Notes under the pieces: model-generated
Told to the model about the DNA's origin: nothing
Database searches by the model: none
Seen by the model: only the letters and a program-made list of their open reading frames with translations
Sequence record: NC_047890.1
Origin: Escherichia phage PGT2
Length of the DNA stretch: 42,686 nucleotides
Strand: one strand, 5' to 3'
Position numbers and translations under genes: made by a program
Shown here: in pieces, positions 1-4,103 of the stretch
How the letters are laid out: each line of letters starts with the position of its first letter
How positions within the stretch are numbered: the stretch's first letter is position 1

Positions 1-260
1 TCCAACACAAATGAGGTCGCGTTTCCCCCGTAGGCCCGGCCTTCTGGATGGCTAAATGGCTGGATGGATGGATGGCTGGACGGCTAGACGTTTAGACGGC
101 TAAATGGCCAAATGACCGTAAAAAGGGCCGTGGGCACTGATAGGGTCAATCGGGCTGTAAGCCACGCCAACCGGGGTTTCCGCACATTACTTTATAAGAG
201 AGCTTGTAAGGTGTCTGGCGGCGATCCGTCTACGACGGGAGAAGGAAAGAGACGTGGGGT
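1..260. repeat. Left direct terminal repeat (DTR), 260 bp
   Basis: Bases 1-260 are identical to 42427-42686, checked block by block. The repeat runs to the window edge, so 260 bp is a minimum length. Confidence 0.9.
48..118. repeat. Array of short imperfect ~8-bp repeats (CTRRAYGG-like) inside the terminal repeat
   Basis: ggctaaatgg ctggatgg atggatgg ctggacgg ctagacgt ttagacgg ctaaatgg ccaaatga read directly. Resembles the short repeat series in T7 terminal repeats. Confidence 0.6.
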
Positions 261-316
261 ATCTATCTTTTTGGATACGCCTATCTTTTTCTAGTCATCT
301 ATCTTCTTACGATGAG

Positions 317-336
317 CTATCTATCTATCTATCTAT
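317..336. repeat. (CTAT)5 microsatellite flanked by TATCT-TTTTT iterons
   Basis: ctatctatctatctatctat at 317-336; ctatcttttt recurs at about 263-273 and 284-294, just inside the left terminal repeat. Confidence 0.6.
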
Positions 337-383
337 CCAGCTATCCGATTATCTTCGCTTCGACGGATCGGCTATCGCCTTTC

Positions 384-413
384 TTGTCTCCGCTACGATA
401 AGGGAGCTATACT
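384..413 (+). promoter_or_regulatory. Candidate sigma70-type promoter (TTGTCT-18-TATACT)
   Basis: -35 ttgtct at 384-389, -10 tatact at 408-413, 18-bp spacer; lies upstream of the strong RBS of ORF 453. Confidence 0.3.
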
Positions 414-452
414 AAGGATTGTGTTATTGCTCTTTAAGAATGAGGTGAGATT

Positions 453-656
453 ATGGCTATACGTAATTGGGCGGCGGTGCTGGCCATTGTGGATAGTGTG
501 GGGACTGAAGCGGCGTTATCCTTGCCGTATGTTCCGGCTGATGCTAACACTATGCCGGACCGGGCCAAAAGATATGCAATTGAGTACAACATACAACGGG
601 GGAAGTATGGCGAGACCTTGCCGGAAGTACCGACGTCGTGCACTTATCGGGATTGA
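453..656 (+). CDS. Hypothetical early protein (67 aa)
   Basis: ATG at 453 preceded by SD gaggtgag with 7-nt spacing; first ORF after the terminal repeat. Confidence 0.45.
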   Translation: MAIRNWAAVLAIVDSVGTEAALSLPYVPADANTMPDRAKRYAIEYNIQRGKYGETLPEVPTSCTYRD

Positions 657-1047
657 TGTATCCGGGTATCATCCGCCGGCTGTGGTCCGGAACTGGTTAA
701 GGGATACTTTAAGGGATGAATCCAAGGGACTAGCCGATCAGCTTATTTGTAAGCCGTGGGCTGTCTGGTTAGTTTGGGCGCATGATGAGATAGATAGTAA
801 GCGGGTCAGTCTTCTGTGCTGTGTAGGGGAGCGGCAAGCCTTAACTATTATGGATAACGCGGCCCGGCTTGACGGGTATCTGTGCCGGCTGTATCAGTCC
901 GATGGCGATGCGGTCGATATTAGTCATCTGTCCGAGTATAAATCGGTGCATAACTGGACCGGATACTGGAAGCATGTACACGGTGAGGATATGCCGATGA
1001 CGATTAGTGATGACGGATTGAGAAAGCTGCGGGAGATGATAGCATGA
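607..1047 (+). CDS. Hypothetical early protein (146 aa); possibly the C-terminal part of a frameshifted product with ORF 453-656
   Basis: ATG at 607 follows a G5 run (598-602); frame is +1 relative to ORF 453 and overlaps its 3' end; a strong terminator follows the stop. Confidence 0.35.
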   Translation: MARPCRKYRRRALIGIDVSGYHPPAVVRNWLRDTLRDESKGLADQLICKPWAVWLVWAHDEIDSKRVSLLCCVGERQALTIMDNAARLDGYLCRLYQSDGDAVDISHLSEYKSVHNWTGYWKHVHGEDMPMTISDDGLRKLREMIA

Positions 1048-1051
1048 TGAT

Positions 1052-1088
1052 AAGGGGCGGGGAGTGTATCCTTGCCCCTTTCTTTTTG
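1052..1088 (+). terminator. Rho-independent terminator
   Basis: 12-bp stem aaggggcgggga / tccttgcccctt (two G-U pairs), loop gtgta, then tctttttgt. Confidence 0.6.
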
Positions 1089-1217
1089 TATTGTGGATCC
1101 CTGACGTTCTCCTGATCGGGCTTATGCACTCATGGCTGTGCGTTGGCTTGTCTTACGTGTGATTAGGTGTCTGGTGAGAACGTGGGAGATTATTTTCGAT
1201 TATTTTTAAAATATCGC

Positions 1218-1246
1218 TTGCATAGTTCGTGAGGAGGCTATATAGT
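1218..1246 (+). promoter_or_regulatory. Candidate sigma70 early promoter (TTGCAT-17-TATAGT) with AT-rich upstream region
   Basis: -35 ttgcat at 1218-1223, -10 tatagt at 1241-1246, preceded by tatttttaaaatat. Confidence 0.4.
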
Positions 1247-1442
1247 TAATTTCAACGGCGGGGTAGTGGGAAGACAAGCCGATAAAATAGGATTCCCTCC
1301 ACATGGTCAGTTACCATAGGTCATCCGAGACACCAAACGGAATAACTAACAAGTAGTAACACCGGGGCAAGGAGGCCGCCTCGAAAGAGGAAAGTAGCTG
1401 GTAATGGCGTATGAAGCATTACCCCGGTGAGAAAGAAAGAGA

Positions 1443-1471
1443 TTGACAAGTTCAGAAGTAAGCAGTAAGAT
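1443..1471 (+). promoter_or_regulatory. Candidate sigma70 early promoter (TTGACA-17-TAAGAT)
   Basis: Consensus -35 ttgaca at 1443-1448; -10 taagat at 1466-1471; shares the upstream 18-mer aagaaagagattgacaag with the promoter at 1639. Confidence 0.45.
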
Positions 1472-1638
1472 GTAAATCAAGCAGTACGGGAGGAGGCGCA
1501 ACGGAAGGCGCGACACGGCGGGGAGTGATACAAGGACGCGCCAAAGGGAGAACGGATAGGAACTGCGAACCCTTCCGGATACCCGCTACGGATAGCACAG
1601 TTTGCCGGAGTATGCAGACACGGTAAGCAAGAAAGAGA

Positions 1639-1667
1639 TTGACAAGCTGGACAAGTTACCCGATAAT
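1639..1667 (+). promoter_or_regulatory. Candidate sigma70 early promoter (TTGACA-17-GATAAT)
   Basis: Consensus -35 ttgaca at 1639-1644; -10 gataat at 1662-1667; an RBS and small ORF follow. Confidence 0.55.
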
Positions 1668-1698
1668 AAGCTCAACGAATCGCAACGAGGAGAGAGAA

Positions 1699-1857
1699 AT
1701 GACTTACTACGAATCAGCAGAGAACGAGATGATCACCGCAGCACGCGCAGAAAAAGAAGTGCGCCGCCACGGTTGCAGCGTAGCAGAATTTTACGCAGAC
1801 TGCGGTACTCATGAGGAGTACGACGCACAAGCTGTGTTAGAATGGTTAGGGTACTAA
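1699..1857 (+). CDS. Small acidic early protein (52 aa)
   Basis: ATG at 1699 preceded by SD aggagag; lies downstream of the promoter at 1639; 11 acidic versus 4 K/R residues. Confidence 0.45.
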   Translation: MTYYESAENEMITAARAEKEVRRHGCSVAEFYADCGTHEEYDAQAVLEWLGY

Positions 1858-1878
1858 CAGAAAGTTTGAAGAAATAGG

Positions 1879-1907
1879 TTGACAAGTTAAGCAGTAAGCA
1901 GTAACCT
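1879..1907 (+). promoter_or_regulatory. Candidate sigma70 early promoter (TTGACA-17-TAACCT, weak -10)
   Basis: -35 ttgaca at 1879-1884; the spacer carries two AAGCAGTA copies, paralogous to the promoter at 1443. Confidence 0.35.
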
Positions 1908-2122
1908 AGAAAGCAAGCAGTACAGCAGTATCACAGCAGCCTAGAATAGGTTGAGTCGCACTCGGTGTGAATAGCTGACCTGACAGCGATATGGTTCAGG
2001 GGGGCCGGAGGATAGACAGTGACGTCGCCAATAAGCCCAACAAACGAAAGGTTTGTTAGTGTATCCTCACAGTAGGGTACAGCAACAAACTAACCGTAAA
2101 CGCAACGTAAACGAGGCGCACC

Positions 2123-2362
2123 ATGACTACACGTACAGAATACAACGGACACAAAAACAAAACTCACTGGAATGTAAGCCTTTGGATTAATAACGATGAG
2201 GCACTTTACCAGTTGGCAAGAGAATTTATCAACGATAACAATAACCGTAATGATGCGGCCCGCGCTATGGCGTTATTTTTAGCACAGTTGGGACAAGATA
2301 AAACGCCGGACGGATTCAAATACAGCGCTACGGCGATCCGCGCCGCTATGGTTGAGATGTAA
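2123..2362 (+). CDS. Hypothetical early protein (79 aa)
   Basis: ATG with SD acgagg at 6-nt spacing; first of a run of tightly packed same-strand early ORFs. Confidence 0.55.
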   Translation: MTTRTEYNGHKNKTHWNVSLWINNDEALYQLAREFINDNNNRNDAARAMALFLAQLGQDKTPDGFKYSATAIRAAMVEM

Positions 2363-2373
2363 GGAGGCACAGC

Positions 2374-2640
2374 ATGAAACTTTCAAAACAGACCGCGACC
2401 GATATTAGAAGCGCACTCATTGGCAAGGACGTGCCAGCTATCGCAAAGGCTTATCAGGAAAAAGGTTTATCATTCACTCGCTTCATATGGGACGCGTATC
2501 ACTCTATCGGCCACGCTAAGACCAACGAGATACTGACAGCTAACAACAAGCTGACAGTTATTGGTGGCTATGTAACCGATATTAATGACAGCCATATTGA
2601 AACAATGCTAAAACTAGCGTTCAAAGATTGTAAGTTTTAA
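2374..2640 (+). CDS. Hypothetical early protein (88 aa)
   Basis: ATG preceded by strong SD aaggagg. Confidence 0.6.
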   Translation: MKLSKQTATDIRSALIGKDVPAIAKAYQEKGLSFTRFIWDAYHSIGHAKTNEILTANNKLTVIGGYVTDINDSHIETMLKLAFKDCKF

Positions 2641-2682
2641 GATAGCGGCATACAAATAAACGCAACGTAAATGAGGCGCACC

Positions 2683-3177
2683 ATGAAAGTATTAATTTCT
2701 GCATTCCGTAAAGAAAACGATCTGTTAACCCATATCAATAATCACGCGGAATTATTCGACCGCATCACCGCATTAGGATTGACGCCGCAGCCCGTCGATG
2801 GCGTGTGGAAAGGTGTATCGGAGTTTTCTTACATGGTACACGGTGTTACCACAGCGATGCTCAAAGCGTTTTATGCAATGGCCCGCGACTACAATCAGGA
2901 GGCTATCTTGCTTGTTGCTGATGATAACCGTGCCGCAGTAGTGCCCACCGATGGCCCGGTGATGGCCCCGATGATTGACGTTGGCGACTGGAGGGAAGTA
3001 AGCAAAGAGATCGCGATACAATTTGACGGATACACCAAGACACGCGACGGCCGCTATTTTGTCGCCGCCACTCGTGAGCAGTTCGGCCTCGCCACTCGTC
3101 GGCTGTTAGCCACACAGATGGGCGTAATCGCTGCTAACGAATATGCAGCACGTGTAAACGCAGTGGGAGGATTATAA
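2683..3177 (+). CDS. Hypothetical early protein (164 aa)
   Basis: Start at the second ATG (2683), chosen because the 28-nt block before it is 27/28 identical to the leader of ORF 2123; the provided ORF track begins at the in-frame ATG at 2671. Confidence 0.55.
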   Translation: MKVLISAFRKENDLLTHINNHAELFDRITALGLTPQPVDGVWKGVSEFSYMVHGVTTAMLKAFYAMARDYNQEAILLVADDNRAAVVPTDGPVMAPMIDVGDWREVSKEIAIQFDGYTKTRDGRYFVAATREQFGLATRRLLATQMGVIAANEYAARVNAVGGL

Positions 3178-3178
3178 A

Positions 3179-3427
3179 ATGCGCAAACTTAGTGAAATTG
3201 TACATCATACCAACGTATTCTATAACAGCAAGGGTTATCTGTGGATAACCCTGAAGGACGTGCGACCTGACGGGCGTCATCGTGTGGTAGTACGTAAAAT
3301 GTACAGCAAATACGTTAGTAATTGGTCATTGGATACAGTACGCATTAATAACGAGACTTTTCAGATTGACTCACAGATTGACCTACAACCAACGGCAAGC
3401 CATTCCGCACCATATTTTTCTAACTGA
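3179..3427 (+). CDS. Hypothetical early protein (82 aa)
   Basis: ATG preceded by SD gggagg; overlaps the stop of the upstream gene. Confidence 0.55.
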   Translation: MRKLSEIVHHTNVFYNSKGYLWITLKDVRPDGRHRVVVRKMYSKYVSNWSLDTVRINNETFQIDSQIDLQPTASHSAPYFSN

Positions 3428-3504
3428 ATCCGGGCCTATGCCGCGCACTCATGGGCGGCATACACACGCAGTCAGATCACTCCCATTAAATGAGGACACA
3501 GAGC

Positions 3505-3618
3505 ATGAACACAATAACATCCGGCCTTGCACTCATCGGCGCGATTATCGGCGTCGCTGTGTTTAACGCATTACCCTTGATTATTGGCGTGGCGGTCCTC
3601 AGTTGGTGGCTGTCATAA
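3505..3618 (+). CDS. Small hydrophobic peptide (37 aa), probable single-pass membrane protein
   Basis: ATG with SD gagga at 8-nt spacing; translation MNTITSGLALIGAIIGVAVFNALPLIIGVAVLSWWLS; below the 60-aa cutoff of the ORF track. Confidence 0.4.
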   Translation: MNTITSGLALIGAIIGVAVFNALPLIIGVAVLSWWLS

Positions 3619-3682
3619 TCCACGCACTCATAGCCACACTGTACGTTTCCCAATCGCATAAATCATTTTGAGATATACGCAT

Positions 3683-3862
3683 ATGAATATCAAAGAATCC
3701 GTATCCACAGAACGCGCCGCCGCCATACAGTACGCGCACGATAACCTATCACCGGATGCCTACTGGCTGTTCTGTGACCGCCTGCGAGAAACAGAAGACC
3801 TATCCCCGGATAATATCCACGCCCTTATTGTCGCAGTAGCGCAGGAGGTATCTAATGTTTGA
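3683..3862 (+). CDS. Small acidic early protein (59 aa)
   Basis: ORF track starts at TTG 3668; first in-frame ATG is 3683; weak RBS. Confidence 0.4.
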   Translation: MNIKESVSTERAAAIQYAHDNLSPDAYWLFCDRLRETEDLSPDNIHALIVAVAQEVSNV

Positions 3863-4103
3863 GGCAGCGAACGACGACCATTACAACGAAAAAACAGCGG
3901 TGGAAGAGGCACAGAAGCGCCAGCGGGATATAAATATGGCCTACTATACACGCGTGCCGCCGTTTTACGTGTTCCAGCAAGGCGCTGGCGTAGGCGTATC
4001 CTTCGGTTATGTCACGAGATACGGTTACTCCCGTGTAGGTTATGCCAGCTATTCAGATGCGGCAGAGGCGGCAGAGGCTTATTCCAGTGAGGTAGAAAGA
4101 TGA
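3855..4103 (+). CDS. Hypothetical early protein (82 aa), Tyr/Gly-rich
   Basis: ATG preceded by SD aggagg. Confidence 0.55.
   Translation: MFEAANDDHYNEKTAVEEAQKRQRDINMAYYTRVPPFYVFQQGAGVGVSFGYVTRYGYSRVGYASYSDAAEAAEAYSSEVER

Follow-up and report, generated by a model that had tools for sequence, protein, structure and literature searches.

The early leader of the T7 group, one of the best-studied groups of phages, has so far been treated as a set of promoters, boxA and RNase III sites. In T7, the DNA of the left end enters first and is transcribed by the host polymerase; tandem strong sigma-70 promoters (A1-A3) occupy this first-entering end and are followed by conserved non-coding RNA signals, namely boxA and R0.3. 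A comparable organization is found in Escherichia phage PGT2 (MG201401), a distant T7 relative of the genus Ermolevavirus whose sister phage, and nearest database record, is phiKT. In its complete genome of 42,686 bp, which is the window analyzed here, positions 1186-1667 are a T7-like early-promoter array with three host-RNA-polymerase promoters in tandem (P1, P2 and P3), and the spacers of this array encode two non-coding structured RNA modules, designated A (1360-1429) and B (core at 1550-1633). T7 itself carries neither module and, unlike the elements of its leader, B is an additional cassette between two promoters or, in the close T7 relative P1338, the replacement of the boxA-holding T7 segment between A3 and R0.3.

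The modules also resemble putL and putR of phage HK022, which likewise are structured nascent RNAs of about 70-85 nt just behind host-polymerase early promoters, are independent of any particular downstream gene and are accessory among related phages. The put RNAs consist of two long stem-loops with a triplex and bind the beta' zinc-binding domain (PMC9378689), whereas B has three hairpins with a loop-loop pseudoknot, is followed by a promoter on its 3' side and usually occurs alongside boxA. A third comparison is offered by the virulent phages LUZ19 and phiKZ, in which non-coding RNA candidates derived from 5' untranslated regions were found by ONT-cappable-seq (PMC10914365). Those candidates, too, are short structured RNAs from the 5' untranslated part of early transcripts, conserved among relatives and without an assigned function, but they are defined by premature termination, whereas A and B have no terminator and are supported by comparative evidence (covariation) rather than by transcriptomics. 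Structured leader RNAs and RNA decoys are thus already known in phages, and motifs A and B fit no described family. Judged from the sequence comparisons given below, B is an undescribed pseudoknotted RNA family of many T7-like phages; it takes the first-transcribed position in dozens of Escherichia, Klebsiella, Yersinia, Citrobacter, Hafnia and Serratia phages and is missing from Rfam, and there is a real chance that the function of the modules is new as well.

Module B, which the sequence-only reading of this leader had not mentioned, is the better conserved of the two. By BLAST, positions 1478-1630 are 83-92% identical to unannotated DNA of the Drulisvirus-like coliphage Minorna, of P1338 and of the Berlinviruses Carena and nasanit, despite unrelated flanks. 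Among five sequences of this subtype (B1), each variable stem position still pairs and five pairs are compensatory. The covariance model built from these five sequences, R1, scores 104.9 bits at 1550-1633, its sole copy in the window, and it finds one copy per genome and rejects every pattern-only match. With its filters switched off, R1 recovered a diverged subtype (B2) among relatives of Carena, at 45-51 bits in 285P, BA14 and a Klebsiella Przondovirus. Model and BLAST together distinguish four subtypes over Berlin-, Kayfuna-, Przondo-, Drulis- and Ermolevaviruses: B1 is carried by PGT2, phiKT, Minorna, P1338, Carena and nasanit, B3 by Klebsiella Drulisviruses and B4 by the T7-like Klebsiella phage 5OI88, while B2 is near full length in 45 GenBank/RefSeq records of Berlinvirus, Kayfunavirus and Przondovirus (48 matched, many of them GenBank/RefSeq duplicates), with hosts in seven genera (Escherichia, Yersinia, Citrobacter, Hafnia, Serratia, Shigella and Klebsiella). 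This census reaches as far as BLAST-reachable relatives and exact-pattern scans, the model having been run on fetched loci only.

In an alignment of 17 sequences from the four subtypes, hand-curated and N-padded to hold register, 97.6% of 376 cells are paired, a figure inflated by the fitting of the alignment to the structure, and 15 of the 24 pairs are changed on both sides; none of 500 shuffles reaches any observed measure, and slid partners pair in 33-44% of cells. Independent of curation are the model-based matches, the wholly different H2 and H3 sequences among subtypes and the pseudoknot itself, which occurs in four covarying versions (CUGCG/UGCAG, CCGCG/UGCGG, CCGAG/UUCGG and CCCUG/UAGGG). 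Since G-U pairs are present and the minus strand is structureless (its fold is featureless, z = 0.02), the + strand RNA is the folded molecule of B. phiKT and Minorna have almost the same purine-rich 5' extension and hairpin as PGT2; the stem of Pokalde, Indie and 5OI88 reads GGCC/GGCC or GGUC/GGCC, with GGAGGA..GCAACGGAAGG retained. Long forms with this 5' hairpin are found in B1 of Ermolevavirus and Minorna, in B3 and in B4, and the extension stem covaries.

The same comparisons bear on whether the conservation could stem from a small peptide gene or from a function at the level of double-stranded DNA, for instance as an origin or in the binding of a protein. Short open reading frames (ORFs) do overlap both modules, and some automatic annotations put hypothetical coding sequences over B; against this, indels of 1-2 nt between homologues disrupt every frame, for which the small ORFs were rejected, no start codon stands at a usable Shine-Dalgarno spacing, and the compensatory stem changes include G-C to G-U, which is a mismatch on the other strand. 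Such an origin of the conservation is scarcely credible.

H1 is the almost invariant part of B (GAUAGGAAC ... GA ... CCU.C). A purely structural role, either as a shield of the 5' end against RNase E and RppH or as a folding insulator between tandem promoters that limits R-loops or backtracking, would agree with the purine-rich nature of the modules, with their location at the 5' ends of primary transcripts and with their constant placement between promoters. However, the near invariance across genera of the unpaired nucleotides of H1 (GAUAGGAAC, GA and CCU) and the retention of a specific pseudoknot exceed what a protective hairpin needs, RNase III cutting at R0.3 in T7 relatives would detach B from the very mRNA supposedly protected, and close relatives manage without B, so that a structural role appears improbable. 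A sequence similarity of H1 was observed separately: at the place where PGT2 has the B1 sequence CGAACCCTT (1565-1573), H1 of P1338 and Carena contains the exact 9-mer CGAAACCTG, which also occurs in the A3 leader of T7, in its second hairpin (UAACGAAACCUGACC, L133 ~410-425). About 0.04 such matches are expected by chance, and the two elements may be remotely related or merely coincide.

The loop of H2 bears on another proposal, according to which B would be a sponge for CsrA-type proteins through loop-presented GGA, or the flanking A-R-N repeats would bind Hfq. There are 11 GGA in 1478-1630, where dinucleotide shuffles contain 5.8 +/- 1.7 (1/500), ANGGA is present five times against 1.7 expected, and the H2 loop reads ANGGAU in B1 and B2. 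On the other hand, the H2 loop of B3 and B4 is AGAACAGA, without GGA, two more GGA of B1 are lost in B2, the conserved GGA lie mostly inside helix H1, and the compact pseudoknotted fold is unlike CsrB-type hairpin arrays. A CsrB-type array was accordingly rejected, given that the GGA enrichment of PGT2 is accompanied by the loss of the only loop-presented GGA (H2) from B3 and B4, and a sponge of either kind is very improbable. A motif, GNGUAUGNAG, that the loop of A seemed to share with the H3 loop of B was also considered and fails in B2-B4.

Module A lies in the stretch 1253-1698, which the sequence-only reading had described as one purine-rich untranslated leader of about 440 nt running from the promoter at 1218. 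The composition was borne out, as 65.5% of the stretch is purine, which places it in the top 0.1% of the 446-nt windows of the genome (mean 52.2%, standard deviation 3.2%), and so was the lack of a credible ORF: no + strand ORF of the stretch has a usable ribosome-binding site, and the first good start is the ATG at 1699 behind GAGGAG. The single leader did not hold, as the stretch is divided by P2 (1443-1471) and P3 (1639-1667). The repeat arms reported there, caccgggg (1360-1367) with ccccggtg (1422-1429) and ggtaatg (1400-1406) with cattacc (1417-1423), are found at exactly these positions, and the 7-bp hairpin is indeed nested inside; however, both helices share 1422-1423 and the outer stem therefore measures 6 bp when the hairpin is formed (1360-1365/1424-1429). 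Folding of 1340-1440, which had been suggested as a check, returned exactly this branched structure (ViennaRNA, -28.6 kcal/mol, z = -3.2, 0 of 200 shuffles equal), and 1352-1436 gave z = -3.0.

Homologues of A were identified in phiKT (L001 3420-3485), in Minorna (L002 1165-1230) and in a Minorna-like metagenome contig (L131). All copies have in common a 5' AAGUAGU (1351-1357 in PGT2, directly 5' of the module), the 6-bp outer stem, a purine-rich ARGGA stretch, a terminal hairpin of 6-7 bp and its invariant 10-nt loop GCGUAUGAAG, and are followed by GAAAG..TTGACA of the next promoter. Between PGT2 and phiKT or Minorna, five of six pairs of the terminal hairpin and three of six of the outer stem are changed on both sides, so that 8 of 12 pairs are double-changed and none is broken; the middle hairpin is not conserved. 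This conservation of the 1360-1429 fold with compensatory changes, sought in relatives as a further check, supports the small structured RNA that had been offered as an alternative for this site. After filtering by flanking stems, only PGT2, phiKT and Minorna-like contigs retained A, with no other copy in IMG/VR or in the fetched loci; the first IMG/VR pattern had been too loose and gave over 120 matches, mostly by chance.

The first choice of the same reading for 1360-1429 was a site of RNase III processing comparable to the T7 R-sites. RNase III substrates are typically irregular hairpins of about two helical turns (~20 bp) with an internal loop, as in those R-sites. A stable conserved stem-loop in a T7-like early RNA is compatible with such a site, as is the lack of a recognizable T7-type R0.3 at this place in PGT2, phiKT and Minorna. 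Nevertheless, module A branches and stacks coaxially over no more than about 13 bp (6 + 7), the helices of B are 3-8 bp long, nothing in 1253-1698 aligns with R0.3, which is a separate downstream block in P1338 and Carena, and the site lies between promoters, two strong ones interrupting the supposed leader, rather than between genes. Furthermore, an invariant 10-nt loop on freely covarying stems points to recognition of the loop rather than of the helix. A processing site is thus quite improbable.

The 5' part of the P1 transcript, 1253-1350, has no homologue by BLAST, and the matches to phiKT all fall elsewhere. When the full 1253-1442 transcript is folded, the minimum-energy structure contains a long-range helix of about 1257-1268 with 1417-1428 that displaces part of the module A pairing. 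The two complementary arms are CGGGGUAGUG, at the 5' end of the transcript, and CAUUACCCCG, in which the 3' strands of module A adjoin. The upstream arm is unique to PGT2, and the alternative pairing may either serve as a conformational switch or have arisen by chance.

Table 1. Features of the PGT2 early-promoter array and of its RNA modules (positions in the window)
Feature	Position	Strand	Description
Promoter P1	1186..1246	+	A/T-rich UP-like stretch 1186-1215; -35 TTGCAT 1218-1223; 17-nt spacer; -10 TATAGT 1241-1246
P1 transcript, 5' part	1253..1350	+	without homologue; 1257-1268 able to pair with 1417-1428
Module A	1360..1429	+	outer stem 1360-1365/1424-1429; branched fold; transcribed from P1
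Module A, small hairpins	1366-1377; 1379-1390	+	second hairpin CCUC-GAAA-GAGG
Module A, terminal hairpin	1400-1406/1417-1423	+	loop GCGUAUGAAG 1407-1416
Promoter P2	1430..1471	+	purine-rich GAAAGAAAGAGA 1430-1442; -35 TTGACA 1443-1448; -10 TAAGAT 1466-1471
Module B, 5' extension	1486..1549	+	purine-rich GGGAGGAGGCGCAACGGAAGG, then hairpin GGCGCG 1507-1512 / CGCGCC 1537-1542
Module B, core	1550..1633	+	84 nt; three hairpins and loop-loop pseudoknot; transcribed from P2
Module B, H1	1553-1555, 1558-1560 with 1571-1573, 1575-1577	+	
Module B, H2	1585-1587 with 1594-1596	+	
Module B, H3	1600-1607 with 1621-1628	+	
Module B, pseudoknot	1563-1567 with 1613-1617	+	CUGCG (H1 loop) with UGCAG (H3 loop)
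Promoter P3	1634..1667	+	GAAAGAGA; -35 TTGACA 1639-1644; -10 GATAAT 1662-1667
First early gene, main operon	1687..1857	+	ribosome-binding site GAGGAG ~1687-1692; ATG 1699; 52 aa
Fourth promoter	1879-1907	+	TTGACA 1879-1884; TAACCT 1902-1907

The promoters that frame the modules are predicted with different strengths. P3 (TTGACA-17-GATAAT) agrees with the consensus at 11 of 12 positions and is the top sigma-70 match of the first 14 kb in a promoter scan; P2 (TTGACA-17-TAAGAT, 10/12, predicted transcript start near 1478) is, with P3, one of the two highest. P1 (8/12, predicted start near 1253) lies below the listing of the scan and was read by eye from the sequence; its layout is also kept in phiKT and Minorna. 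Purines like GAAAGAGA stand 5' of P2, P3 and the fourth promoter, and the GAAAGAAAGAGA of P2 appears to resemble a proximal UP subsite. Relatives have equivalent promoters at matching relative places, which the GenBank record of BA14 labels as host RNA polymerase promoters. The 52-aa protein encoded from 1699 matches phrog_25588, a function-unknown family, with E = 3e-33.

B is found without exception between two host-type promoters. In BA14 (L138), for example, the depositor annotated promoters at 608-645 and 757-793, and B occupies 658-745. The distance from the upstream start varies, as the B2 core begins about 13 nt after the predicted transcript start and the long form of B1 about 70 nt after it, module A lying about 105 nt after the P1 start. 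The order of elements varies too, being P1-A-P2-B-P3 in PGT2 versus promoter-B-A-promoter in phiKT and Minorna, and so do the genes that follow B, which encode ocr, SAM hydrolase or unrelated small hypothetical proteins. In the Berlinvirus ErnstBeyeler, exactly B and one promoter are missing, while in CICC 80001, EG1, C5, HZ2R8 and IME390 the unit of B2 plus promoter stands behind an A3-type promoter, not an A2-type one. Recombination between the repeated promoter sequences would be the simplest account of this gain, loss and permutation of B. In Studiervirinae, boxA and R0.3 lie downstream of B.

The distribution of the modules was also surveyed outside these phages. Neither the full set of complete E. 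coli genomes nor the PLSDB plasmids gave a BLAST match to 1340-1640, and therefore the modules do not derive from host or plasmid; no copy of B is present in E. coli genomes, plasmids or GTDB genomes as scanned. All 17 IMG/VR matches to the H1 pattern are T7-like genomes of 32-43 kb. Scans of JGI metagenomes and GTDB genomes with the B1 pattern yielded a single Minorna-like contig (L131), the remaining matches being model noise, and a corrected B pattern found PGT2, phiKT, Minorna and two chance matches only.

Two observations concern RNA structure around B in other phages. Leaders of the T7 type (L004 ~2660-2700; downstream of B in L137, L138 and L142-L146) contain, 3' of the last early promoter and 5' of boxA, a hairpin with the conserved loop ACACUGAAA, the stems of which covary (UCACC/GGUGA, GUCCC/GGGAC, GUCAC/GUGAC), and this order of hairpin then boxA resembles the boxB-boxA order of rrn leaders. 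In addition, the spacer of the B2-linked promoter (285P, L137 ~630-672; same place in L142-L146 and L150-L163) holds an inverted repeat with covarying ACAGC/GCUGU versus ACAGU/ACUGU, and the loop sequence, CUCCUUUAAAA, is similar to the anti-Shine-Dalgarno end of 16S rRNA.

The context of B is relevant to a put-like action in cis, the main rival explanation, in which the nascent RNA would fold, bind RNA polymerase and confer resistance to pausing and termination, thereby speeding transcription-driven genome entry and shielding a long untranslated, Rho-exposed leader. B stands right behind a strong early promoter, at about +13 in B2 and after the 5' hairpin in B1, B3 and B4, and putL has the same placement (PMC9378689). 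Moreover, B is independent of downstream content, it substitutes for the boxA-containing leader segment in P1338, the main early operons of PGT2 and phiKT are devoid of boxA, and the leader is G-rich and C-poor (C/G ratio of 0.68 in 1253-1698), as expected under selection against Rho loading. Several features are at odds with this action: a strong promoter always lies 3' of B, leaving many operon transcripts without it; most B-carrying Studiervirinae keep boxA downstream, so that all their transcripts already pass an antitermination signal; three hairpins with a kissing loop differ from the two long stem-loops with a triplex of put; and no intrinsic terminators are predicted within the PGT2 early operon. 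R1 likewise finds nothing in the HK022 early region (best match in 27-31 kb, 7.4 bits, E = 0.18), and a put homologue was rejected on this result. On balance, we regard a put-like action as unlikely.

The explanation that we prefer, with a probability of roughly 0.4, is that the modules are RNA payloads that act, as RNA, on a component that hosts of the Enterobacteriaceae share, and are not regulators of the downstream genes. A would be transcribed from P1 and B from P2 before any phage protein exists, both would fold as + strand RNA, and they would then act on the host component, possibly as decoys or inhibitors of an RNA-binding protein, a nuclease or an immune sensor. Because their DNA enters first and is transcribed by the host polymerase, the modules would be among the earliest molecules of the phage. 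Since B carries a replacement promoter, most operon transcripts start downstream of B and do not contain it and, because the R0.3 RNase III site lies downstream, B would be cut off the mRNA in T7 relatives. A host-directed payload is thus favored by the promoter that B brings along, by the position of R0.3, by the variable neighbor, distance and A-B order, and by the accessory movement across genera; the phage genera that exchange B have only the enterobacterial host in common.

Phages are known to deploy RNA against host systems, as in pseudo-ToxI antitoxin RNA, RNA anti-CRISPRs and phage tRNAs. In the role proposed here the modules would be similar to such decoys in being small, structured, accessory, horizontally exchanged and early, a comparison that serves as a lead only, and no resemblance to any of the three was found with Rfam or ARAGORN. 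A bolder version of the host-directed payload, offered tentatively and as doubtful, is that A and B are RNA-only effectors of counter-defence or host takeover, carried in promoter-flanked cassettes that are swapped by promoter-repeat recombination, made in the first seconds after the DNA enters, ahead of any phage protein, and neutralizing an RNA-binding nuclease or immune sensor conserved in Enterobacteriaceae.

Several points weigh against the payload explanation. A discrete small RNA would need processing, because no terminator follows A or B. The presence of B in the place of boxA in P1338 would fit an elongation role equally, and a put-like element, too, would be expected at the very start of a primary transcript, where B is found (about +13 in B2). 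The hand alignment, fitted to the structure, inflates the percentage paired. Module A is known from three distinct sequences only; its strand is assigned from the direction of transcription alone, because it contains no G-U pair, and its hairpin is not the sole thermodynamic solution in PGT2, because the full-transcript fold re-pairs part of it. B represents a concrete and readily testable candidate for an RNA-based host-directed function or for a new polymerase-modifying RNA.

Known identities were sought by several routes. An Rfam 15 scan of positions 1-4000 gave only an sR41 noise match (E = 2.3) outside the region, seven loci spanning all B subtypes had no Rfam 15 match at E <= 1, and ARAGORN found no tRNA or tmRNA gene in the whole window. 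No terminator-like site is present on the + strand of 1100-3500, the nearest being at 1052-1090, upstream of P1, and boxA (GCUCUUUAACAA) does not occur within 1186-2122, its sole near match of the early end (428-440) belonging to a separate transcription unit. The 8-mers in common with 16S and 5S rRNA were within chance expectation and were dropped. A literature search returned no paper on these sequences, the entries of a 2023 catalogue of viral structured RNAs having been left uncompared (PMC10690425). That catalogue lists 10,006 candidates from a pipeline that ignored contig edges (PMC10690425), and in linear genomes this leader is situated at such an edge.

Beyond the array, a third long untranslated leader, 1908-2122, follows the fourth promoter and is kept in phiKT (L001 ~3520-3880); it opens with CAAGCAGUAC, as does the P2 transcript, and may hold more RNA structure. 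Upstream of the main early promoters, a left-end transcription unit spans 384-1090. Its promoter-like site (384-413) and a boxA-like TGCTCTTTAAGAA (428-440) precede two ORFs that overlap, one of 67 aa (453-656) and one of 146 aa (607-1047), and a strong terminator follows at 1052-1090. Neither protein matches a PHROG family. The unit is conserved in phiKT (L001 ~2340-3030), where it is unannotated. Short tandem repeats near the left end, at 40-110 and 255-345 (ggatggatggatgg; ctatctatctatctatcc), lie within or just past the 260-bp terminal repeat reported for PGT2.

Database annotation of these regions is uneven. The phiKT annotation places a "late promoter P3" on the left-end terminator and names a 165-aa early protein a tape measure protein. 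Hypothetical coding sequences, some of them on the minus strand, are laid over B in nasanit, Baskent_phicoli_1, Indie and pKP-M186-2.2 (L005 2334-2546, L143 306-694, L147 610-780 and L148 700-1035), and hypothetical proteins are listed under the B match in the Shigella phages ESh1 and ESh6; the coding sequences over B in all six phages are probably spurious.

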